Part shown: positions 22,164 through 56,063 of the stretch, piece after piece | Layout of the letters: each line of letters starts with the position of its first letter | Position numbering within the stretch: the first letter of the stretch is position 1 | From: Alphaproteobacteria bacterium | GTDB taxonomy: Bacteria > Pseudomonadota > Alphaproteobacteria > UBA828 | Length of the DNA stretch: 64,000 nt | Assembly: GCA_963422645.2 (NCBI GenBank) | Contig: CAXXVO010000004.1 | Span: 288,001-352,000, forward strand | Direction of reading: 5' to 3' | Translations under genes and position numbers: made by a program | Notes under the pieces: generated by a model | The model's input: the letters and a program-made list of their open reading frames with translations, nothing else | Database searches by the model: none | What the model was told of the DNA's origin: nothing

Positions 22164-24336
22164 GAAACAACCGGAATACACCTTACCTTGGCCGCTAAGC
22201 TGTCCGAATAGGCGAGGCCACCTCAGACCACGATGTCGTTGGCCGAGAGCGCCTTGAGGTGGGCGAGGGCGGCCCTTCTTTCGTCGCCGTGCGCGACCAG
22301 GTCGAAGTCCACCGGGATGTTCGCGTGCAGCCGGTAGAGGCAACTCAGCAGGCCCTGCGGGTAGTGGGCCGCCTCGGAGGGCGTGCGGTAGCCGGCCTTG
22401 AGCAGCGGCCGCGGCAGGTTGAGCTTGGAGCCGTCGACCGCGAACACGCGGTGGCCCTTCCAGGCCGGGCCGTCGGCGCGCTTGAGGATCTCGGCGTGCA
22501 GCGTCTTGAACACCGCCTCGTCGACCTTGGCCCGCGCCATGCACATCGCCGAGGCCGAGACCGGCGCCGGCTGCGGCAGTGCGACGCCCAGGACCCGGCA
22601 CTGCTCCCACAGCCCGGCCAGCGTCGTGGCGTAGCCCGCGCGGCCGTTCGAGAACGCCAGCCGGAAGATGAAGAGCATGACGAGAAGGGTGTCGAGGACC
22701 CGCCGGCGGCTCTGCCACACCCGGTCGTGATCGGCGGCCACCGCCGCCAGTGCGCCGATCAGGTCCTGCCACAGCGCCACGAAGGGATCGTCCGGCGCCA
22801 GCGCTGCCGGCCGTGTCCTGTTCCCGCGCCGCGCCGGCCGCGGGCCTTCGAGCAGGATCGAGCGGAAGTCCGGCGTCAGCGGGTAGACGTAGACGCTTTT
22901 GCGGGTCTTGCCCTTGCCGCCCCCGGTCTCGCCGAGACAGCGCCAGTTGGCCGCGCGGTAGCAGGCGCCGTCGAAGAGGCTGGGGTCCACGAAGGTCTCC
23001 ACCAGAACCGGGCGCGCTCCGAAGCGCGCCTCCCAGTCGCCGGGCAGCTGGCGCAGCGCCATCGACAGCGCTTTCGACGCCAGGTTGTCGACCCGGACCC
23101 AGGGAAAGATCAGGAAACGCGTGTGACCCACGACCAGATCGAGGTGCTTGCGGAAGCCTTCCGCCGGCCACCCGATCCACTCGTCGCGGCAGGGCAGCGT
23201 GCGCGACGCCCGGGCAAACAGAAGGCAGCCCAGAGGCCGCCCGTGGCGGTCCAGGAGAAAATAGCGCAGATGCGCGCCGACCAGACGATGCAGCCCGAGA
23301 TAGTGGTGGCGCGCGACGAACTCGTTCCACAGCCCGCCCTCCTCCTTGCCCGCCGCAATCGACAGGCGCAGCGGCATCAGCGCGGCCAGGTCCTCCGCGA
23401 TCGCCGCGGCCGGCGCCGTCCGCTCGCTCCGGGCCATCGCCTCCTGCGGCCCCCGCACCTGCGCCTCGTCCCGCGCCGGCAGGGTCAGGATGCCCAGCCG
23501 CTCCAACTCCTCCAGCATCCGCAGGCAGACCGCGACACGGTTCCGCCCGCTCGGCGCGCGCCAGTTCAAATGCTCGCAGATCGTGTGCCCGAGCTCGTTG
23601 CGGCTGATCGCCGGAAACAGCGCCACCGTCTCCTGGATGTCGGCAATCTGCCGGCGGGTCAGACGTCTGCCGAAAAAGGTCGTCGACTTCAGCGCGGTGA
23701 TGCGGGGGTCCATGGGCCGGCTCCACTGACAGGGGGACAGCCACAGTGTGCCAAAGCACACGCCACCGGTCAATCCCCCTCGTGCGGGAAACGCCGAGAC
23801 CGACAATCCACACAAGAAATCAACTCGTTACGACACCACCAAAAAACCCCGGAACAATCTTCGCGCCAAATGAATGCCATTGGTGGGCCAACAGGGACCC
23901 CCCACGCGGCTTCGCTCCGCGTAGCGCAGGGCGCCACACGAAGCCGCGCGGGTCCCCCCTATTGGCTACCGGGACAACCTCCGCCGTGCCACTCAGGGGG
24001 GTCAATTTTGCACGCCGATCGGGGGTCAGTATTGAAAGCCGATTGACAATAGTGCACGCGAGGTAAGTGCCCGGGACGCCCGATTCGCCATGCTCCAGGC
24101 GTTGGAAGGCGTTGTGAGGCTTATCGCGGAACATCGTACTAGAGAACTAACGCCCGCTCAGATAATGGACTTGCGGGAGCTTCTTTGGAGCACGGAGACT
24201 GTCCGTCGCATGGTCCAAGAACGGGAACGGGTGCTGGCGGAGTTGGAGGATTATGGCAACATCTACCGATCTTTCGCTTCACTCAAATGGCTCGACCTAC
24301 CGCCGCACCCCCCTTGGGGCACCCCCCTTGGGACAC

Positions 24337-45653: not shown

Positions 45654-47246
45654 CAATGGCATTCACTTAGCGGTTTTCGACTGTTCACTTAAGGAGTCGT
45701 GTTCTTGCGCTGTCGGTTGCGTGCGTTTCTGTCGTTCAGGTGTTCAGGCGACGGCCCGCTTTGCGCGTGCCCACTTGCCGCGGGGTTTGCGCGACCTGCG
45801 TTCGCAGGACCGGCCGGGGTGCGGGCGCTGACGCGCCTGGTTGATGCAGGAGAGGACATGGCTGAGGGTTTCGGCGACCATCGCCGTATGGCGCAGCAGC
45901 AGCGCTTCGAGGTTGCGCGCGACGGTGGCGAGGCCGTTGCTGAAGTTGGCTTTCATCGCCGGCTTGCCGTCGGCAGGGCGCTCGGCGTCGAGGCTTGCGT
46001 TGCTGCGGTTGGTGAAGAGCCGGGTCATGGCGATGAGGTTGAAGTGGGCGAAGAGCTCCTGGCGGACGCCGCGCTCGGTCTGGCTGTGGAAGGCCTCGAC
46101 GGCCATGGCCTGTTTCGAGGTCTTGTAGAGTTCCTCGATTCCCCAGCGCGCGTGATAGAGCTCGGCCAGTTCCGCGACGCTCCAGGCCTTGGGGTCGAGG
46201 AGGGTGGTGGCGAGGATGAAGACCGTGCTGCCGATGCGGTAGCGGACCAGTCGCAGGCGCAGCGGGGTGGCGTCGACGTGCGGCGTCTTGCGGCGCAGCT
46301 TTCTCAGGGTGTCCTTTCCGGGAGCGACGGTGATCGGCGCGTCCGTGCGGCCGTCGGCGATGAAGGCGTCGAGGGCGGCGCCTGCCTTCTTCTTGATCCG
46401 GAACACGGGGTGCAGGCCGCGGGCGACATGGGCGTGCAGCATCTCCCAAGAGTAGTAGCCGCGGTCATAGACCACGATGTCGTTGGCCGAGAGCGCCTTG
46501 AGGTGGGCGAGGGCGGCCCTTCTTTCGTCGCCGTGCGCGACCAGGTCGAAGTCCACCGGGATGTTCGCGTGCAGCCGGTAGAGGCAACTCAGCAGGCCCT
46601 GCGGGTAGTGGGCCGCCTCGGAGGGCGTGCGGTAGCCGGCCTTGAGCAGCGGCCGCGGCAGGTTGAGCTTGGAGCCGTCGACCGCGAACACGCGGTGGCC
46701 CTTCCAGGCCGGGCCGTCGGCGCGCTTGAGGATCTCGGCGTGCAGCGTCTTGAACACCGCCTCGTCGACCTTGGCCCGCGCCATGCACATCGCCGAGGCC
46801 GAGACCGGCGCCGGCTGCGGCAGTGCGACGCCCAGGACCCGGCACTGCTCCCACAGCCCGGCCAGCGTCGTGGCGTAGCCCGCGCGGCCGTTCGAGAACG
46901 CCAGCCGGAAGATGAAGAGCATGACGAGAAGGGTGTCGAGGACCCGCCGGCGGCTCTGCCACACCCGGTCGTGATCGGCGGCCACCGCCGCCAGTGCGCC
47001 GATCAGGTCCTGCCACAGCGCCACGAAGGGATCGTCCGGCGCCAGCGCTGCCGGCCGTGTCCTGTTCCCGCGCCGCGCCGGCCGCGGGCCTTCGAGCAGG
47101 ATCGAGCGGAAGTCCGGCGTCAGCGGGTAGACGTAGACGCTTTTGCGGGTCTTGCCCTTGCCGCCCCCGGTCTCGCCGAGACAGCGCCAGTTGGCCGCGC
47201 GGTAGCAGGCGCCGTCGAAGAGGCTGGGGTCCACGAAGGTCTCCAC

Positions 47247-47698
47247 GAACGTCACAGACTACTATCTTGCAGGCTTCCGAGGCTCCTGAGCCCGTTCGCA
47301 TTCGACGCTACAAGCATCCTTTCGACGGTGAGGCGATCGAGATTCTCGATCGGCGCAAAGGAGGTTACGGGGGCCGGACTCTGAAGGTTCGGATGCCGGA
47401 CGGCAGCTGTTGTTGGATACCAGCGGCATGGACGAGCCTTGGAGCCCGTCCCGAGGATGCACCACGCCTGATCGGAGAGTTGTCTGATTTCCTCACCCTC
47501 CTTAATCTTCTGAATGACCTTGATGAGAGGGAACTCAGGCGCGATGGATGCGGAGCAGGAGTTGGCGCTGATCGCGCTGATGGAGTGGGAGGAGCGCCGG
47601 GACCGGTGGCTGGCGTTTCCGGCTCCGGACCGGGATCGCGTCGTGCAGGGTCTGGCCGATCTGATGGTTCGGATTGCGGATCGGGAGGCGGCCGATGA
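47247..47698 (+). CDS. Accessory ORF lacking its own start when integrated (start supplied by right end on the circle)
   Basis: VRIRRYKHPFDG..LKVRMPDGS..IPAAWTSL resembles small proteins (DUF5372-like) found before such recombinases; TGA overlaps LSR ATG. Confidence 0.65.
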
Positions 47699-47735
47699 CG
47701 GTCGATCCGTCGAAGATCACCCAGCGTCATCTTGA
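47544..47735 (+). CDS. Small helical accessory protein (63 aa)
   Basis: GAGAGGG upstream; W..FPAPDRDRVVQGLADLM motif; overlaps both neighbours in the third frame. Confidence 0.5.
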   Translation: MDAEQELALIALMEWEERRDRWLAFPAPDRDRVVQGLADLMVRIADREAADDGRSVEDHPASS

Positions 47736-49875
47736 GCGTCTTGCAGTTGTCTACGTTCGCCAGTCGACACCCTTGCAAGTGAACGCGCACCAGGAATCGC
47801 AGCTGCGCCAATACGCGCTTGGCGAGCGTGCCCGGGAGATTGGCTGGCCGGCCGAGCGGATACGGACGATCGACGCCGATCTTGGCGAGAGCGCAAGCGA
47901 GAAGGCGCGCGGCGAGCGTGGCGGCTTTCGGGAGATGTGCGACCTGATCGCCCGGGACCATGTCGGGGGCATCTTCGGGATTGAGGTTTCGCGGCTCGCC
48001 AGGAACACGATGGAATGGTTTCAGCTTCTCGATCTATGTCGCAGGCACGACACGGTTCTGGTTGAGGACTGCCACATCTACTGCCCGAGCCGGGACGACG
48101 ACTCCCTTGTCCTGGGGATCAAGGGAACCGTGAGCGCCGCTGAGCTGTCTCTTATTCGCGCCCGGATGGAGGGCGGAAAGCGGAACAAGGCGCTTCGTGG
48201 CGAGTTGTACTCGCGCGTTCCGATCGGATTTGTGCGGGATGGCTCGACTTTGCGGAAGGATCCGGATGCCCGGGTTCAGGCGGCGATTGCAACGGTCTTT
48301 GCGCGTTTTCGGCAAGCCGGTTCGGCCCGCCAGGCGACGATGCTGCTGCGTGAGGCGGGCGAGGATGTTCCCTCTCGCCGGCACCCGGGGGCAGCATTGG
48401 AATGGGGCCCGGCGCGCTATGAACGGGTGTACCGCATCCTCACCAACCCGGCGATGGGCGGCGCCTATGCCTACGGCTTCAAACGCGGCGTTGGTCACGG
48501 TGCGCCGCTGCGGCCGGTCCAGGAGCGCTGGGATATTCTTCAGCCGGAGAAGCATGAGGGATATGTCAGTTGGGCAGAATGGCTTGAAGTACAGGAGCAG
48601 CTGGCCCGCAACCACATGGCTCCGGACGGAGCCCGCGGCGCGGCGCGGGAAGGGTCGGCTCTGCTCCAGGGTCTCGCGGTCTGCGGCGGCTGCGGATTGC
48701 CGATGACCGTCTACTACAGCAAGACGGGCTGGGGGTATGAGTGCCGCAAGCGCGATGCTGCGCGCCGGCGCGGCGGTTGTTGGTCGACAGGCGGCAAGCG
48801 CGTTGATGCGGAAGTTGCCCGTCTGTTTCTCGATGCGGTCACGCCGGCGGGGGTGGAGGCGGCCCGGCAGGCGGCTTGTGATGTTGCTGAACGCGGCCTG
48901 CGCGCGTTGCGCCGTTGGGAGCTGGATCTTGAGCACTGCCGGTACGAGGCGCGGCTTGCCGAGCGGCGCTACAAGCAGGTCGATCCCGACAACCGTCTGA
49001 TTGCGGCAACGCTGGAGCGCGAGTGGGAGAAGGCGCTTCGCGCCGAGAAGGCTGCACAGGAAGCGCTTGAGGCGGCACGGGCGCGTCAGCCCGCGGCCCC
49101 TGCCCCGGCGGTTTTCGAGGGTCTCGGCGCGCGCCTGTCGCAGGTCTGGGGGGCGTCGTCGACGACCATGCGCGAGCGCAAGCGCCTGCTCGCCTGCCTC
49201 CTCGACGAGGTGACGATCGAGCTTGCGCGACAGGAGCGTGAGATCATGGCAACATTGCGCTGGCGTGGCGGGCAGATCGACGAGATCACTTTGCCGATGC
49301 TCGCGGGCTCTCCGACACCCCGGCGCGATGAGCGCAGCACGGTCGAGCTCGTGCGCAAGCTGTCATGCTTTTACAACGACCGGGAGACCGCGAAGGTTCT
49401 CACCCGCCAGGGACGGCGCACAGCACGGGGTCTGGATTTCACGGCCGAGCTTGTTGGCAGCCTGCGTCGCCGCCATGGCATTGCGCCCTACCAGCCCGAC
49501 GGGGACGAGCCGGTGCTCATGGGCGTTGCCGATGTGGCGAAGGAGATCGGAGTCTCGGATGACACCATCTATCGCTGGATCCGCGAGGGGCTGGTTCCGG
49601 TTGCCCAGCCCGATATCGAAGGTGCTCCTCTTCGGATCCGGATGACCCCGACCTTGCGCGAGCGCTTTCGTGAGGCGCCTCCGGAGGGGTTTGTTCCCCT
49701 CGCTGTGGCAATGGATCGTCTGGGTGTCACGCGGCAGACGGTCTGGGAACGGATCAAGGCGGGCAGGCTGGACAGCTGCCATGTGACCCGCGGCAAGACG
49801 CGCGGACTGTATGTGCGTTTGCCGGTCGAGGACGAACTGCCGCTGCTGCGCGGGCTCAACGGTGATGGGGGGTGA
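47695..49875 (+). CDS. Large serine recombinase with C-terminal HTH domains (726 aa)
   Basis: VYVRQS catalytic Ser, EVSRLARN, recombinase domain, CGGC..C..C zinc ribbon, coiled coil, two excisionase-like HTHs; GGGAGG RBS. Confidence 0.95.
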   Translation: MTVDPSKITQRHLERLAVVYVRQSTPLQVNAHQESQLRQYALGERAREIGWPAERIRTIDADLGESASEKARGERGGFREMCDLIARDHVGGIFGIEVSRLARNTMEWFQLLDLCRRHDTVLVEDCHIYCPSRDDDSLVLGIKGTVSAAELSLIRARMEGGKRNKALRGELYSRVPIGFVRDGSTLRKDPDARVQAAIATVFARFRQAGSARQATMLLREAGEDVPSRRHPGAALEWGPARYERVYRILTNPAMGGAYAYGFKRGVGHGAPLRPVQERWDILQPEKHEGYVSWAEWLEVQEQLARNHMAPDGARGAAREGSALLQGLAVCGGCGLPMTVYYSKTGWGYECRKRDAARRRGGCWSTGGKRVDAEVARLFLDAVTPAGVEAARQAACDVAERGLRALRRWELDLEHCRYEARLAERRYKQVDPDNRLIAATLEREWEKALRAEKAAQEALEAARARQPAAPAPAVFEGLGARLSQVWGASSTTMRERKRLLACLLDEVTIELARQEREIMATLRWRGGQIDEITLPMLAGSPTPRRDERSTVELVRKLSCFYNDRETAKVLTRQGRRTARGLDFTAELVGSLRRRHGIAPYQPDGDEPVLMGVADVAKEIGVSDDTIYRWIREGLVPVAQPDIEGAPLRIRMTPTLRERFREAPPEGFVPLAVAMDRLGVTRQTVWERIKAGRLDSCHVTRGKTRGLYVRLPVEDELPLLRGLNGDGG

Positions 49876-50952
49876 CCATGCCCGGACCGTCAGGCAAAAC
49901 GCCCGATGCAGATCCGCACCTCCAACGTGCGATACTGGAAAATCACGTCCGGCACGATGTAAAGGTCGCCGCGGCGGCAACAACGGAATCCAAACCGCCT
50001 TTTCTATCAATGCGGTAGAAACGCCCGCCCACCTGCACAACGGAGAAGCATTATGAAGCCTTCATCTCCACCAGAACCGGGCGCGCTCCGAAGCGCGCCT
50101 CCCAGTCGCCGGGCAGCTGGCGCAGCGCCATCGACAGCGCTTTCGACGCCAGGTTGTCGACCCGGACCCAGGGAAAGATCAGGAAACGCGTGTGACCCAC
50201 GACCAGATCGAGGTGCTTGCGGAAGCCTTCCGCCGGCCACCCGATCCACTCGTCGCGGCAGGGCAGCGTGCGCGACGCCCGGGCAAACAGAAGGCAGCCC
50301 AGAGGCCGCCCGTGGCGGTCCAGGAGAAAATAGCGCAGATGCGCGCCGACCAGACGATGCAGCCCGAGATAGTGGTGGCGCGCGACGAACTCGTTCCACA
50401 GCCCGCCCTCCTCCTTGCCCGCCGCAATCGACAGGCGCAGCGGCATCAGCGCGGCCAGGTCCTCCGCGATCGCCGCGGCCGGCGCCGTCCGCTCGCTCCG
50501 GGCCATCGCCTCCTGCGGCCCCCGCACCTGCGCCTCGTCCCGCGCCGGCAGGGTCAGGATGCCCAGCCGCTCCAACTCCTCCAGCATCCGCAGGCAGACC
50601 GCGACACGGTTCCGCCCGCTCGGCGCGCGCCAGTTCAAATGCTCGCAGATCGTGTGCCCGAGCTCGTTGCGGCTGATCGCCGGAAACAGCGCCACCGTCT
50701 CCTGGATGTCGGCAATCTGCCGGCGGGTCAGACGTCTGCCGAAAAAGGTCGTCGACTTCAGCGCGGTGATGCGGGGGTCCATGGGCCGGCTCCACTGACA
50801 GGGGGACAGCCACAGTGTGCCAAAGCACACGCCGCCGGTCAATCCCCCTCGTGCGGGAAACGCCGAGACCGACAATCCACACAAGAAATCAACTCGTTAC
50901 GACACCACCAAAAAAACCCCGGAACAATCTTCGCGCCAAATGAATGCCATTG

Positions 50953-51277: not shown

Positions 51278-52312
51278 ATGCAAGACCAGAAAATTCCCGC
51301 GACCGTGATCACCGGCTTCCTCGGTGCCGGCAAGACCAGCCTCATCCGCCACGCGCTGGGGGCCGCGAGCGGCCGGCGCATCGCGCTCATCATCAACGAG
51401 TTCGGCGATCTCGGGATCGATCAGGAGGTGCTGCAGGGTTGCGGCGACGAGTCCTGCGACGAGACCGATATCGTCGAGCTCGCCAACGGCTGCATCTGCT
51501 GCACCGTGGCCGACGACTTCGTGCCGGCGATCGAGGCGCTGCTCGCCCGCGAGCCCGCGCCCGAGCACATCCTGATCGAGACCTCGGGCCTCGCGCTGCC
51601 GAAGCCGCTCGTCGCCGCCTTCAATTGGCCCGAGATCCGCACCCGGCTCACCGTGGACGGCGTGGTCGCGGTGGTGGACGGCCCGGCGCTGGCGGAGGGC
51701 CGCTTCGCGGACGACGAAGACGCGCTGCAGGCCCACCGGGAGGCGGACGAGGCGCTGGATCATGAGTCGCCCTTAGCCGAGGTGTTCGAAGACCAGATCG
51801 GCTGCGCCGACATGGTGATCCTCAACAAGGCCGACCTGCTGGCCGCAAACGGCGCCGATGAGGGCGCGGCGCGCCTGACACCGCACCTCCGCCCCGGTGC
51901 CCGCGTGGTCAAGGCGGCCCACGGGCGCGTGCCGCCGGACCTGCTTCTCGGCCTCGATGCGGCAGCGGAAGCCGATCTCGCGAGCCGCCGCTCGCACCAC
52001 GACGACCTCGACGAGCCGCACGACCACGACGAGTTCGAGAGCTTCGTCATGGCGCCCGGCGTGATTGACGACCCGGCCGCCTTCGCCACCCGGCTCGGCG
52101 CCGCTGCGGACGCACATGGCCTGCTGCGCGCCAAGGGCTTCCTCGATGTCGCGGGGAAGCGCCGTCGCCTGGTGGTGCAGGCGGTCGGCACCCGCGTGGA
52201 CCGTCACTTCGACCGCGATTGGCGCGCGGGCGAGGTACGCGAGAGCCGTCTCGTCGTGATCGGCCTCGCGCCCCTGGATCGCGCGGCCGTCGAAGCGGCG
52301 ATCAGAGACTAG
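51278..52312 (+). CDS. cobW: Cobalamin biosynthesis GTPase CobW
   Basis: GFLGAGKT, GCICCTVADDF, ETSGLALPKPL, His-rich segment. Confidence 0.94.
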   Translation: MQDQKIPATVITGFLGAGKTSLIRHALGAASGRRIALIINEFGDLGIDQEVLQGCGDESCDETDIVELANGCICCTVADDFVPAIEALLAREPAPEHILIETSGLALPKPLVAAFNWPEIRTRLTVDGVVAVVDGPALAEGRFADDEDALQAHREADEALDHESPLAEVFEDQIGCADMVILNKADLLAANGADEGAARLTPHLRPGARVVKAAHGRVPPDLLLGLDAAAEADLASRRSHHDDLDEPHDHDEFESFVMAPGVIDDPAAFATRLGAAADAHGLLRAKGFLDVAGKRRRLVVQAVGTRVDRHFDRDWRAGEVRESRLVVIGLAPLDRAAVEAAIRD

Positions 52313-52322
52313 GAGCTCAGTC

Positions 52323-55300
52323 TTGCACCTGCTTGCCGCGCAGCCCGGCGCCATCGAGGACGGCGCCGACGCGGTGGACCTCGGCCAGTCGCCGGGGGAC
52401 ATCGTGCTGCTCTCCGCCGCCGATACCGAGCTCGCCTGCTTCGCCCAGGCCCAGGCAAGGCTCGGCGCGGGCGCGCCCACGCTCCGCCTTGCGAACCTCA
52501 TGCAGCTCGGCCACAACCTCTCGGTCGACCGCTACGCCGACCACGTGATTGGCGGCGCCAGGCTGGTGATCGTGCGGCTCCTGGGCGGCGAGAGCTACTG
52601 GCCCTACGGCGTCGAGCGGCTGACCGAGGTCTGCACCGAGCGCGGCATTCCCGTCGCCTGGCTGCCGGGTGACGACAAGCCCGATGCCGGGCTCGCCGCG
52701 CGCGGCACCCTTGCGCCGGAGGCGGCCGAGATGCTCTGGCGCTACTGCACCCAGGGCGGCATCGACAATGCCGAGCACGCGCTGCGCTACGCTGCCGCGC
52801 TGATCGGGCACGACACGGCCTGGCGCCCGCCCCGTCCGGTGCCCCGCGCGGGCCTCTATTGGCCGGGCGACGGCGTACTCGCCCTTGAAGACCTGATGCA
52901 GCGCTGGCGCGACGGCGCGCCGAAGGCGTGCGTGGTCTTCTACCGGGCGCTGCTCCAAGCCGGCTCGCTCGCGCCAGTCGATGCGCTGGTGGCGGGGCTG
53001 CGCGAGGCGGGGCTCGACCCGCTGCCGATTTTCGTCACCAGCCTGCGCGATGCCCCGGCGGCGGAGCTGATCGGCACACTCATGCGCACGACGGAGCCCG
53101 CGATCGTGCTCAACGCGACGGGCTTCGCCGTCTCCCGCCCCGGCGCGCCCAAGGAAACCCCCTTCGCTCAAGCCGGCGTGCCCGTACTGCAAGCCATCTT
53201 CGCGGGCGCCACCGAGCGGCAATGGGCTGAGGCCACGCGCGGCCTCTCGCCCCGCGACATCGCCATGAACGTGGCGCTGCCCGAGGTGGACGGACGCATC
53301 CTCACCCGTGCGGTCGCGTTCAAGACCGAGGCCCGCTTCGACCAGGCCACGCAAGCGCCCATCGTGGTGTCGGAGGCGAACCAGGATCGCTGCCGCTTCG
53401 TCGCAGCCCTCGCCGCTGCCTGGGTGCGCCTCGCGCGCGCCGCGCCGGCGAAGCGCCGCGTCGCCCTGATCCTTGCCAACTATCCCAACCGCGACGGGCG
53501 CATCGGCAACGGCGTCGGTCTCGACACGCCAGCGAGCACGGTCCGCATCATGGACGCCCTCGCCGAGGCCGGCTACAGGGTGGAGCGCCCGCCGGCGGAC
53601 GGCGCCGCGTTGATGGCGCGTCTCACGGCAGGCCCTACCAACGCCGCCGACGCTGCGGAGCGTCCGGCCGAGACCACGCTCCCTCTCGCCGATTACGCGC
53701 GCTTCTTCACCGCGCTGCCCGAGCCTGTGCAGGCAACGGTCACCGAGCGCTGGGGCCAGCCCGAGGCAGACCCCTTCTTCCGTACGGCCGAGGGGTGCTT
53801 CGCTCTGCCTGCCGTGCGTTTCGGCAACGTGGTCGTCGCGATCCAGCCGGCACGGGGCTACAACATCGACCCGGAGAAGAGCTACCACGACCCCGGCCTG
53901 CCGCCGCCCCACGGCTATCTCGCCTTCTACGCTTGGCTGCGCACCGCCTTCGACGCCCATGCGGTGGTGCACGTGGGCAAGCACGGCAACGTGGAATGGC
54001 TGCCGGGCAAGGCGCTTGCGCTCTCCGCCGAGTGCTTTCCGGAAGCCGCGCTCGGCCCGCTCCCGCACGTCTATCCCTTCATCGTGAACGACCCCGGCGA
54101 GGGCAGTCAGGCCAAGCGGCGGGGCGCGGCCGTGATCGTCGACCATCTGACTCCGCCGCTCACCCGTGCCGGCAGCCACGGCGCGCTGGAGGAGCTGGAG
54201 CGGCTGGTTGACGAATTCTTCGACGCCGCCTCGGTCGATCCGCGCCGGTGTGCGCCCTTGAGCACGCGCATCCTGGAGCTTGCCGCGTCTGCCGGGCTCG
54301 ACCAGGATTGCGGCATCCGGGCTGCCGACGGCAGCGACGAGGCGCTCCGCAAGCTCGACGGCTATCTCTGCGAAATCAAGGAGATGCAGATCCGCGACGG
54401 CCTCCATGTCTTCGGCGAAGCGCCGGCGCCGGAGCGCCGCATCGAGCTCCTGCGTGCGATCGCGCGGAGCGTGCGCGGGCCCGGCGCAAGTGAGGCTTCC
54501 CTCTTGCGCGCGCTCGCCGACGATCTTGCCCTCGGCATCGACCCCCTCTCGGCTCCGCTCGGCGACCCGTGGCGTGGCCCGCGCCCCGAGGCCCTCGCCA
54601 ACGGCGCGTCCTGGCGCAGCACGGGAGACACGGTCGAGCGGCTGGAGACTCTGGCCGCCAGCCTGATCGCCGGCGCCTTTCGCCTGCCCGAGGAATGGGC
54701 TACCAGCGCCGCCGTGCTGCGCGAGGTTGAGGACACCATCGGGCCTGCGCTGGATGCGAGCGCGGAGGCGGAGACCGCAGGCCTGCTCACCGCGCTCGAC
54801 GGCCGCTTCGTGGCACCGGGCGCCGCCGGTGCGCCGACGCGCGGGCGGCCGGATGTGCTGCCCACGGGCCGGAACTTCTATTCGGTGGATACGCGCCAGG
54901 TGCCGACCGCCGCGGCCTGGCAACTCGGCTGGAAATCGGCGCAGCTTCTGGTGGAGCATTACGCCCAGACTCACGGCGACTGGCCGCGGGCGATGGCGCT
55001 CAGCGCCTGGGGCACGTCCAACATGCGCACGGGCGGGGACGATATCGCCCAGGCTTTGGCGCTCATCGGCGCGCGCCCGCGCTGGGAGGGGCCATCCGGC
55101 CGCGTCACCGGCTTCGAGATCATGCCGCTCGGCCTGCTGGATCGGCCCCGGGTGGACGTGACGCTCCGGGTCTCGGGCTTCTTCCGCGACGCCTTCCCCG
55201 GCCTGATCGACCTCTTCGATTCCGCCGTGCGCGCCGTCGCGGCCCTCGACGAGGGGCCGGAGGACAACCCGCTCGCCGCCAAGGTCGCCGCCGATGCCGC

Positions 55301-56063
55301 GACGCTCGCGCAGGAGGGCGCGCCGGAGGCACGGGCCCGGCGCCTGGCCTCCTACCGGGTCTTCGGCTCCAAGCCCGGTGCCTACGGCGCGGGCCTCCAG
55401 GCGCTGATCGACGAGCGCGGCTGGCAGGACGCGAGCGATTTCGCCCAGGCCTACGTCGCCTGGGGCGGCTGGGCCTACGGCGCGGGCGAAGGCGGCGCGG
55501 CCGAGCACAAGCTCTTCGAGCGCAGGCTCGGCGCGGTCGAGGCGGTAGTGCAGAACCAGGACAACCGCGAGCACGACCTCCTGGACAGCGACGACTACTA
55601 CCAGTTCGAGGGCGGCTTGGCCGCGGCGGTGACGGTCCATGCCGGCCGCGCGCCCGCGCTTTACCACAACGACCATTCGGTGCCCGACAATCCTCGCATC
55701 CGCACGCTTGCCGACGAGCTCGGCCGCGTGGTCCACGCGCGCGTGACCAACCCCAAGTGGATCCAGGGCGTCATGCGCCACGGCTACAAGGGCGCCTTCG
55801 AGATCGCGGCGACGGTGGACTACCTCTTCGCCTTCGCCGCCACCACCGGTGCGGTGAAGGACCACCATTTCGACGCGGTGTTCGACGCCTACGTAGCCGA
55901 CGACGATGTGCGGGGGTTCATGGAGGACGCGAACCCGGCGGCGCTGCGCGAGCTTGCCGAGCGACTGCTGGAGGCACAGGAGCGGAGCCTCTGGCGGCCT
56001 CGCGCGAACCACGCGCATGCGCTGCTCGCGGCGCTCCGCGACGGCAGGCAGGAGGTGCTTTGA
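52323..56063 (+). CDS. cobN: Cobaltochelatase subunit CobN
   Basis: MHLLAAQPG, HVGKHGNVEWLPGK, LPTGRNFY; 1246 aa. Confidence 0.96.
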   Translation: MHLLAAQPGAIEDGADAVDLGQSPGDIVLLSAADTELACFAQAQARLGAGAPTLRLANLMQLGHNLSVDRYADHVIGGARLVIVRLLGGESYWPYGVERLTEVCTERGIPVAWLPGDDKPDAGLAARGTLAPEAAEMLWRYCTQGGIDNAEHALRYAAALIGHDTAWRPPRPVPRAGLYWPGDGVLALEDLMQRWRDGAPKACVVFYRALLQAGSLAPVDALVAGLREAGLDPLPIFVTSLRDAPAAELIGTLMRTTEPAIVLNATGFAVSRPGAPKETPFAQAGVPVLQAIFAGATERQWAEATRGLSPRDIAMNVALPEVDGRILTRAVAFKTEARFDQATQAPIVVSEANQDRCRFVAALAAAWVRLARAAPAKRRVALILANYPNRDGRIGNGVGLDTPASTVRIMDALAEAGYRVERPPADGAALMARLTAGPTNAADAAERPAETTLPLADYARFFTALPEPVQATVTERWGQPEADPFFRTAEGCFALPAVRFGNVVVAIQPARGYNIDPEKSYHDPGLPPPHGYLAFYAWLRTAFDAHAVVHVGKHGNVEWLPGKALALSAECFPEAALGPLPHVYPFIVNDPGEGSQAKRRGAAVIVDHLTPPLTRAGSHGALEELERLVDEFFDAASVDPRRCAPLSTRILELAASAGLDQDCGIRAADGSDEALRKLDGYLCEIKEMQIRDGLHVFGEAPAPERRIELLRAIARSVRGPGASEASLLRALADDLALGIDPLSAPLGDPWRGPRPEALANGASWRSTGDTVERLETLAASLIAGAFRLPEEWATSAAVLREVEDTIGPALDASAEAETAGLLTALDGRFVAPGAAGAPTRGRPDVLPTGRNFYSVDTRQVPTAAAWQLGWKSAQLLVEHYAQTHGDWPRAMALSAWGTSNMRTGGDDIAQALALIGARPRWEGPSGRVTGFEIMPLGLLDRPRVDVTLRVSGFFRDAFPGLIDLFDSAVRAVAALDEGPEDNPLAAKVAADAATLAQEGAPEARARRLASYRVFGSKPGAYGAGLQALIDERGWQDASDFAQAYVAWGGWAYGAGEGGAAEHKLFERRLGAVEAVVQNQDNREHDLLDSDDYYQFEGGLAAAVTVHAGRAPALYHNDHSVPDNPRIRTLADELGRVVHARVTNPKWIQGVMRHGYKGAFEIAATVDYLFAFAATTGAVKDHHFDAVFDAYVADDDVRGFMEDANPAALRELAERLLEAQERSLWRPRANHAHALLAALRDGRQEVL

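Follow-up and report, generated by a model that had tools for sequence, protein, structure and literature searches.

The window analysed here, a stretch of 64,000 bp from an alphaproteobacterium of the UBA828 lineage (contig CAXXVO010000004.1, positions 288,001–352,000; coordinates below are those of the window), contains a serine-recombinase element of 2,825 bp (47240–50071) that encodes a 726-amino acid recombinase and, upstream of it, a small accessory open reading frame (ORF), called ORF-A here, whose body lies at the left end of the element without a start. Its ribosome-binding site (RBS), ATG and first codons appear to lie at the right end, so that the gene would become whole only when the two ends are joined on the excised circle. 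As judged from the sequence and from comparison with relatives, one of the element's own coding sequences contains attP, the attachment site of the circle, and the gene that is split is an accessory one and not that of the recombinase. We give a probability of about 0.75 to the reading that ORF-A has a split start at attP and is made from the excised circle. The case is a comparative one and consists of the element's ends, its site-specific insertion, the split start and its conservation, and an overlap of the ORF-A stop with the recombinase start; circle formation in this strain, translation across the junction, coupling into the recombinase, binding to it and the direction of any effect are what we infer from these.

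The element is bounded by two copies of TCTCCAC, at 47240–47246 (plus strand; the attL core region) and 50065–50071, as an earlier note on this DNA had read it. It separates two halves of a minus-strand transposase gene, of which the 5′ half (50072–50884) encodes a DruA/DUF4338-like domain (PF14236, E 9e-28) and the 3′ half (45744–47239) a DDE_Tnp_1 transposase domain (PF01609, E 3.5e-21); the halves (50884–50072 and 47239–45744) continue in frame across the repeat. A blastn search of the element's own genome found 16 element pieces of 99.9–100% identity, which make up seven full copies and nine pieces from about five interrupted or truncated copies, and every copy lies at the same conserved site within the DruA/DDE transposase gene and in antisense orientation. 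Four of the full copies are flanked as the window copy is, two lie in a diverged target and one has a third type of left flank. With at least three flank variants, the element has entered several versions of one conserved site independently. The ends of the two copies in the diverged target have only TCTC in common, and only this part of the left repeat (47240–47243) is common to the variant targets. The same genome has 13 unoccupied sites at which the flanks abut with a single repeat copy, including one inside the window (near 22996–23002) where the target gene is uninterrupted. Since these empty sites carry one copy, TCTCCAC is a core common to attP and the target site attB and not a target duplication. 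The empty-site joint (47239 to 50065, seven shared letters) is also present in contigs of all three sequencing runs that cover the stretch, which is expected because unoccupied target copies exist. Judged by its sequence, the element is insertion-sequence-like, moved by a large serine recombinase and inserted antisense into a transposase gene that belongs to another mobile element, at one conserved site of that gene.

In its integrated form ORF-A is a plus-strand frame of 149 codons (47249–47698) that lacks its own start and ends in a TGA (47696–47698) overlapping the recombinase ATG at 47695 in the sequence ATGA. The right end carries an outward-facing translation start (50042–50071, plus strand), in which GGAG (50042–50045) is followed after 7 nt by an ATG (50053–50055) that lies 19 nt from the end and opens six and a third codons running out through TCTCCAC. 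Joining the ends at the repeat puts this ATG in frame with ORF-A and yields 156 codons (7 + 149). The earlier note had recognized these features, namely the outward GGAG and ATG, a left-end frame with no start ahead of its core, the in-frame 156-codon join and the ATGA overlap, and all of them proved correct. It had also named a TTG near 47266 as a potential internal start; an in-frame TTG does exist (47267–47269), but no purine-rich stretch lies in the 16 nt before it. Across the element's own genome an SD-like (Shine-Dalgarno) 4-mer lies 4–9 nt upstream of 12.7% of all ATG trinucleotides, and the chance of finding such a start in a 17-nt window is about 0.027, or about 0.009 if it must also be in frame.

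Relatives of the element are numerous. Recombinases 36–43% identical are present in 11 of the 61 related genomes searched (own included), nine of 20 other genomes of the same genus have a recombinase match, often in several copies, and homologues occur in 456 plasmid records, mostly of Rhizobium, Sinorhizobium and Bradyrhizobium and also of Pseudomonas, Azospirillum and Streptomyces. Two architectures recur, one of them (ORF-A, ORF-B, recombinase) that of the window copy and the other (ORF-A, a helix-turn-helix gene, a third ORF, recombinase) called "family A" below. The split start was compared in 11 instances of 10 types from Alpha- and Gammaproteobacteria (recombinases 36–44% identical), the ends of which were defined independently of the hypothesis, either from copies in different flanks (the window's own element, G005, G020, P. 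mandelii versus pWW53, M. loti, S. medicae and Mesorhizobium "MesB") or from continuity of the interrupted protein (L012, Mesorhizobium "MesA" and B. barranii). Left out of the set were elements with an ambiguous left end (L013), truncation with different genes on either side (L027), flanks that are alike and so do not define the ends by comparison (L046–48, L015/23/32, L025/34, L041–43 and L076), single copies (L014, L016, L044 and L045), and no recognized ORF-A or a broken recombinase (L066, L072/77 and the Streptomyces element L082).

In all 11 instances an ATG lies 11–19 nt from the right end, is preceded at 4–8 nt by a purine-rich run (GGAG, GGGTG, GAGGTG, GGGGTG, AAAGGG, AGGGGG, AAGGTG, AAGGG or GAGGG) and is in frame with ORF-A with no stop between. 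The suggestion of the earlier note that homologous elements be examined for a right-end RBS and ATG in frame with the left ORF thus has a positive answer throughout the 10 types. Each of the 15 ATGs that lie within 30 nt of a right end is in frame, as against none of five at 31–60 nt. Between the ATG and the conserved motif of the ORF-A domain there are 57, 60, 63, 72, 75 or 84 nt; because this distance varies in threes, the lineages differ by whole-codon insertions and deletions. A relative that has no ORF-A (L019) served as a negative control; its final 70 nt contain no ATG. In L082, on a plasmid of Streptomyces sp. YIM 121038, AGGTG, 4 nt and a GTG directly follow the recombinase stop at the position of the SD and ATG of its relatives; no ORF-A was recognized upstream there, and a GTG start or another layout may be present.

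The attachment sites can be read on a common plan, in which the ATG is followed by 5, 8 or 11 nt, then by the 2-nt crossover, by another 11 nt and by a motif in the left arm that resembles CAGACTAC or TCAACTGCAC. In the window copy the left (P′) arm of attP (47244–47262, plus strand) consists of 11 nt followed by CAGACTAC and also codes for N-terminal residues of ORF-A, and the motif lies at an equal distance in the Pseudomonas and Mesorhizobium relatives. By this arm geometry the crossover of the window copy would be the second TC of TCTC (47242–47243 and 50067–50068), which agrees with the variant targets, since those share only TCTC. Each of the 10 family-A elements read has the same dinucleotide at its two predicted crossover points (TT eight times, CG and CT; read by eye).

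The protein that the joined frame would encode appears to be a distant member of a recognizable family. The ORF-A domain (47315–47515, plus strand; alignment A1) matches PF17342 (DUF5372) at 18.4–19.9 bits (E 0.002–0.0008), below the cut-off of 25, and a word-based protein search with the window ORF-A returned 198 candidates with none at E ≤ 0.001. These low scores, and a third-position G+C that is flat (0.50–0.68 in all three phases) in 47260–47440, are what would be seen if the left-end frame were not a gene and were only the open frame of G+C-rich sequence over attP or regulatory DNA. That explanation seems very improbable indeed, because ORF-A can be aligned with its positional counterparts in 12 relatives, certain H, G and L residues being invariant, PF17342 is matched at E ≤ 0.01 by 10 of these 13 sequences (the window ORF-A among them; best E 3.5e-22), and the frame is also open in the lower-G+C Pseudomonas and Mesorhizobium elements. 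The two Pseudomonas copies differ in the domain by 1, 2 and 5 changes at codon positions 1, 2 and 3, which would point the same way but on too few sites to be decisive. ORF-A is therefore filed as a distant DUF5372 relative, since it aligns with 12 same-position ORFs that mostly match the family; the family has 189 homologues in the databases. A structure model (predicted local distance difference test score, pLDDT, 78) shows a small barrel of the SH3/Tudor-like type and, after it, a long C-terminal helix. No solved structure matched this fold at E ≤ 0.001 (the best was an SH3 domain, E 0.092), so ORF-A can be named by fold class only.

Downstream, the plus-strand recombinase gene (47695–49875) encodes an enzyme with Resolvase, Recombinase, zinc-ribbon and C-terminal HTH_17 domains and is classed by these as a large serine recombinase. 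Its catalytic domain (PF00239, residues 17–170, E 8.5e-17) matches 3g13, the catalytic domain of a conjugative-transposon recombinase; PF07508 covers residues 196–306 (E 2.4e-10), and the zinc ribbon (PF13408, residues 323–362) scores 24.1 bits, slightly below its cut-off of 25.3, and has cysteines that are invariant in alignment A2. The recombinase genes of the two Pseudomonas copies differ by 42, 25 and 150 changes at the three codon positions, a clear coding pattern. Between the ORF-A domain and this gene lies ORF-B (47514/47544–47735, plus strand; likely start ATG 47544), which occupies a different frame within the ORF-A tail and extends 40 nt past the recombinase start. Coding-type third-position G+C switches to the ORF-B frame from about 47500 and reaches 0.82–0.85 in it, so the last ~55 codons of the 156-codon ORF, its last third, are an overlap that is probably unselected as protein, although the 156-amino acid gene of the earlier note is open throughout. 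In the ORF-A/ORF-B overlap the two Pseudomonas copies have 3, 2 and 2 changes at codon positions 1, 2 and 3, again too few to be decisive. No Pfam family was matched by ORF-B. Its equivalents, hypothetical proteins of 52–54 amino acids, are the sole small genes called ahead of the recombinase in the NCBI annotation of three related plasmids.

In each of the 10 instances with two small ORFs the stop codon of ORF-A overlaps the recombinase ATG (seven as ATGA and three as TGATG or TAATG), and in the Pseudomonas and Mesorhizobium elements the overlap is kept although the sequence of the tail is not conserved. The translational coupling into the recombinase that had been suggested from the window copy is supported by this conservation, which probably reflects selection for ribosomes of ORF-A to finish on the recombinase start. 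The same overlap, together with a ~55-codon tail that passes through ORF-B without coding-type G+C, as a frame kept open for read-through would, could mean that the junction frame is real and its protein of minor importance, ORF-A being chiefly a leader along which ribosomes that load at a strong start on the junction reach the recombinase ATG. This would be the counterpart, at the level of translation, of the junction promoters known from other insertion sequences. Such a role for ORF-A seems quite improbable to us, since in family A the ORF stops far upstream of the recombinase, with a gene between, and yet keeps the split start. A conserved domain family (10 of 13 matches to PF17342, 189 homologues), an ORF-A model that folds confidently and a predicted binding to the recombinase also speak for a protein with a function of its own.

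This last prediction comes from a model of ORF-A in complex with the whole recombinase, which scored 0.72 for ipSAE (interaction prediction score from aligned errors) in three runs, with 0.00 for the best of three controls; the mark applied to this score is attained by 58 of 80 solved complexes and by 2 of 110 mismatched pairs. Contacts agreed between runs to at least 69%, and the pLDDT of the partners was at least 65. The helix and an HPF motif of ORF-A are predicted to contact recombinase residues 331–335, 381–394 and 466–528, which by Pfam coordinates and the general layout of such enzymes would fall in the zinc-ribbon domain and at the foot of the coiled coil. Directionality factors act at the zinc ribbon and coiled-coil foot. 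The PDB contains structures of the SPbeta serine recombinase, some of them fused to the small prophage protein YotN, which we take to be SprB, the directionality factor of that recombinase. ORF-A has no sequence or fold match to SprB of SPbeta, gp3 of phiC31 or gp47 of Bxb1.

ORF-A might instead be translated while the element is integrated, from an internal or non-canonical start such as the TTG at 47267, with the right-end ATG and purine run no more than part of the recombinase-binding arm of attP and their frame match a product of fixed site geometry. We judge this unlikely, and the points that weigh for it, or otherwise against a start assembled on the circle, are gathered here. The ATG abuts the conserved recombinase-binding arm and the spacing is fixed in family A (10 of 10), so the conservation of frame follows in part from the geometry of the site; moreover, the 10 types are relatives and not independent trials. 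In-frame candidates inside the element are present in five of the 11 instances (TTG in the window copy and G005, GTG in G020 and B. barranii, and ATG in M. loti), and four of 28 inspected ORF-A homologues are annotated from an ATG 4–7 codons ahead of the motif. Of 22 sequencing runs listed, none on record as RNA, the contigs of three (X1, X2 and X5) were examined for a back-joint of a circle, and none is present; they contain only the empty-site joint and, being contigs, drop rare forms. A contiguous family-A attP pattern matched no stretch in genome, metagenome (also with a looser pattern) or viral contigs; the left-arm part of the pattern fits only about half of the observed left arms, and neither the metagenome nor the viral collection included a positive control. 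The recombinase has a good SD of its own (GGGAGG, 6 nt before its ATG), and the start region shows no special RNA fold (z +1.3) that would suggest a masked ribosome-binding site, so coupling may add little. The score of the complex model may lean on likeness, since complexes of recombinases with directionality factors have already been solved. Finally, production by the circle alone is the reverse of what would be required of a classical excision factor, and the direction of effect proposed below is a guess.

Translation from the integrated element finds less favour in the details of the sites. The check for internal starts suggested in the earlier note came out mostly against them: in six of the 11 instances the element contains no ATG, GTG or TTG ahead of the domain, and the other five do have a candidate, but none of these has an SD-like run. 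In four of the 11 (L012, P. mandelii, pWW53 and MesB) there is no such codon anywhere between the upstream in-frame stop and the domain, and in the family-A element L014 the codon before the motif is GTA and not GTG. The ATG is not fixed to the arm; its distance from the crossover is 5, 8 or 11 nt, so that between lineages the start codon has moved along the binding arm, each time by three or six bases. Nor is the start a mirror of the other arm: the left arm has TCA, TCG or CGT at the place where the right arm has the complement of ATG, and the SD GAG is unmirrored. The right arms of all five family-A elements found through their recombinase keep the SD GAG and the ATG, and the mirror positions of the left arm vary. 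That all 15 ATGs of the last 30 nt are in frame also speaks against this alternative. A search with the 20-nt family-A right arm matched at least 103 stretches in genome contigs, several of which are ordinary gene starts with pilin- or lipoprotein-like N-termini, so the right arm resembles a canonical initiation region. The three-step shifts, the unmirrored arm, the L019 control and this likeness to ordinary starts argue that the right-end start has been selected as a start. The unchanged 20-nt motif (L093–L172) was seen in Acidobacteriota, Chloroflexota, Cyanobacteriota, Planctomycetota, Desulfobacterota and Proteobacteria, a distribution that suggests a very wide and recent spread; the flanks of these stretches usually begin after ..CC TT and in the antisense reading look like conserved DDE transposase motifs.

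A start divided between the ends could also account for what automatic annotation makes of the gene. ORF-A is not called by NCBI in any of the three annotated records with two small ORFs, and among the 28 inspected homologues the annotated start is at the motif in 12, inside the domain in seven, at an upstream ATG in four and within the flank, from which the frame enters, in five. None of the 28 begins with residues encoded by the right end.

The split start at attP can be cast as a simple switch. With attP inside the 5′ end of ORF-A, the RBS, ATG and first six codons would lie at the right end and the remainder at the left, and in the integrated element ORF-A would have no start and would go untranslated. 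Excision by the recombinase would join the ends on the circle and render ORF-A translatable, and its ribosomes, stopping on the recombinase ATG in ATGA, would by termination and reinitiation also let the circle make more recombinase. ORF-A may then be a circle-specific partner that biases the recombinase towards re-integration and is switched off upon integration; because only the circle would make it, a role in promoting integration or in preventing a second excision suits it better than that of a classical excision factor. A transcript of the junction start would have to originate in, or pass through, the non-coding part of the right end (49876–50041, plus strand), which is lower in G+C. No sigma-70-like promoter and no terminator was predicted in a scan of the right end by itself (49700–50120), and Rfam gave no match in 46900–50400. 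While the element is integrated, a frame of 207 codons (50053–50676, plus strand) starts at the right-end ATG and crosses the 5′ half of the target gene in antisense, and a junk fusion protein could arise from it if the right end is transcribed.

The principle of an expression signal that is whole only on the circle is familiar from junction promoters, which are formed on the circular intermediates of IS3/IS911, IS2, IS30, IS21, IS492 and IS110/IS1111, at tnpX of Tn4451 and as Pcirc of ICEclc. The likeness would lie in a signal that is divided between the ends and in recombination functions that are expressed from the free circle and turned off after insertion. However, those systems assemble a promoter, with the –35 element at one end and the –10 at the other, whereas the element described here would assemble a translation start and first codons, and its product is an accessory protein from which the recombinase gains only through the stop/start overlap. 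In SSV1-type archaeal integrases and in myxophage Mx8, attP likewise lies within coding sequence, so that integration splits a gene and the circle restores it, but there it is the tyrosine recombinase itself that is split; here the serine recombinase is whole and a small partner is cut about six codons after its start. TnpX of Tn4451 and TndX of Tn5397 are large serine recombinases that excise and re-insert a non-replicating circle, as is supposed here; unlike the elements that carry them, the present one is 2.8 kb long, has no cargo, is multi-copy, targets conserved motifs of mobile-element genes and carries a DUF5372 gene and a second small ORF.

The recombination directionality factors of large serine integrases, such as phiC31 gp3 and Bxb1 gp47, offer a functional parallel, since ORF-A too is a small element-encoded protein, predicted in its case to sit on the zinc-ribbon and coiled-coil region of the recombinase. 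Known directionality factors are needed for excision and are made while the element is integrated, whereas ORF-A would be made only once the element has left the chromosome; this suggests an opposite polarity or a different role. A literature search returned no paper on DUF5372 and no attP-assembled coding sequence or translation start of a serine-recombinase element, with subscription journals and supplements outside the search; the passages retrieved from PMC5812530 describe no junction-built coding sequence. Thus, the principle is known from junction promoters and split recombinase genes, and a translation-level split of a partner protein appears to be new.

Mobile elements must sense whether they are integrated or free, and junction promoters and split recombinase genes are the known means; here the switch would act on translation, with integration parting the RBS and start codon of a partner from its body. 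If this is true, it would explain the erratic annotation of DUF5372 and provide a new and simple candidate regulatory partner for large serine recombinases, which are tools of genome engineering. The recombinase family is common on plasmids, and the right-end motif of one subfamily extends to many phyla. The apparent insertion of these elements into the genes of other mobile elements also bears on the restraint of transposons in genomes. A far broader proposal, which we find rather doubtful as a whole, is that DUF5372 proteins are directionality factors of reversed logic, produced only by the circle through an attP-assembled start, that bind the zinc ribbon and coiled coil and commit the recombinase to integration. 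Their carriers would then be very widespread hyperparasitic transposons, inactivating mobile-element genes at conserved catalytic motifs (DDE transposases, IS66/IS21 helper genes, group II intron reverse transcriptases, integrases and one another's recombinases).

In all seven types with a readable interrupted gene (the window's own, G005, L012, the Pseudomonas type, M. loti, MesA and MesB) the element is antisense to that gene. The interrupted genes are those of mobile elements, namely DruA/DDE, IS3-like and IS66-like transposases, an IS66 accessory gene, group II intron reverse transcriptases and another serine recombinase; the names rest on Pfam matches for the window copy and on motifs recognized in translated flanks for the others. 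On a plasmid of Mesorhizobium sp. AR07 an element is nested in the recombinase gene of another member of the class, at a conserved motif immediately ahead of its LLLG.KG stretch (L083, L087 and L091).

A second copy of the host insertion sequence of the window (22223–23815, minus strand) has its target site free, and its protein is continuous across the insertion point; its ORF ends earlier than that of the copy at 45744–47255, and another interruption may be present near 22223. The five broken or truncated copies of the element in the same genome lie at C5:27665–34072, C5:441762–447286, C8:597532–601422, C13:39079–41704 and C3:209157–209283. Their pieces overlap by 6–9 nt at four places (element positions 122–127, 267–275, 241–248 and 505–512), which resemble traces of other insertion sequences, and all the breaks fall within the ORF-A/ORF-B part. 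Two long ORFs on the plus strand (51278–52312 and 52323–56063) look like cobW (a P-loop GTPase) and cobN (the large subunit of cobaltochelatase), respectively.

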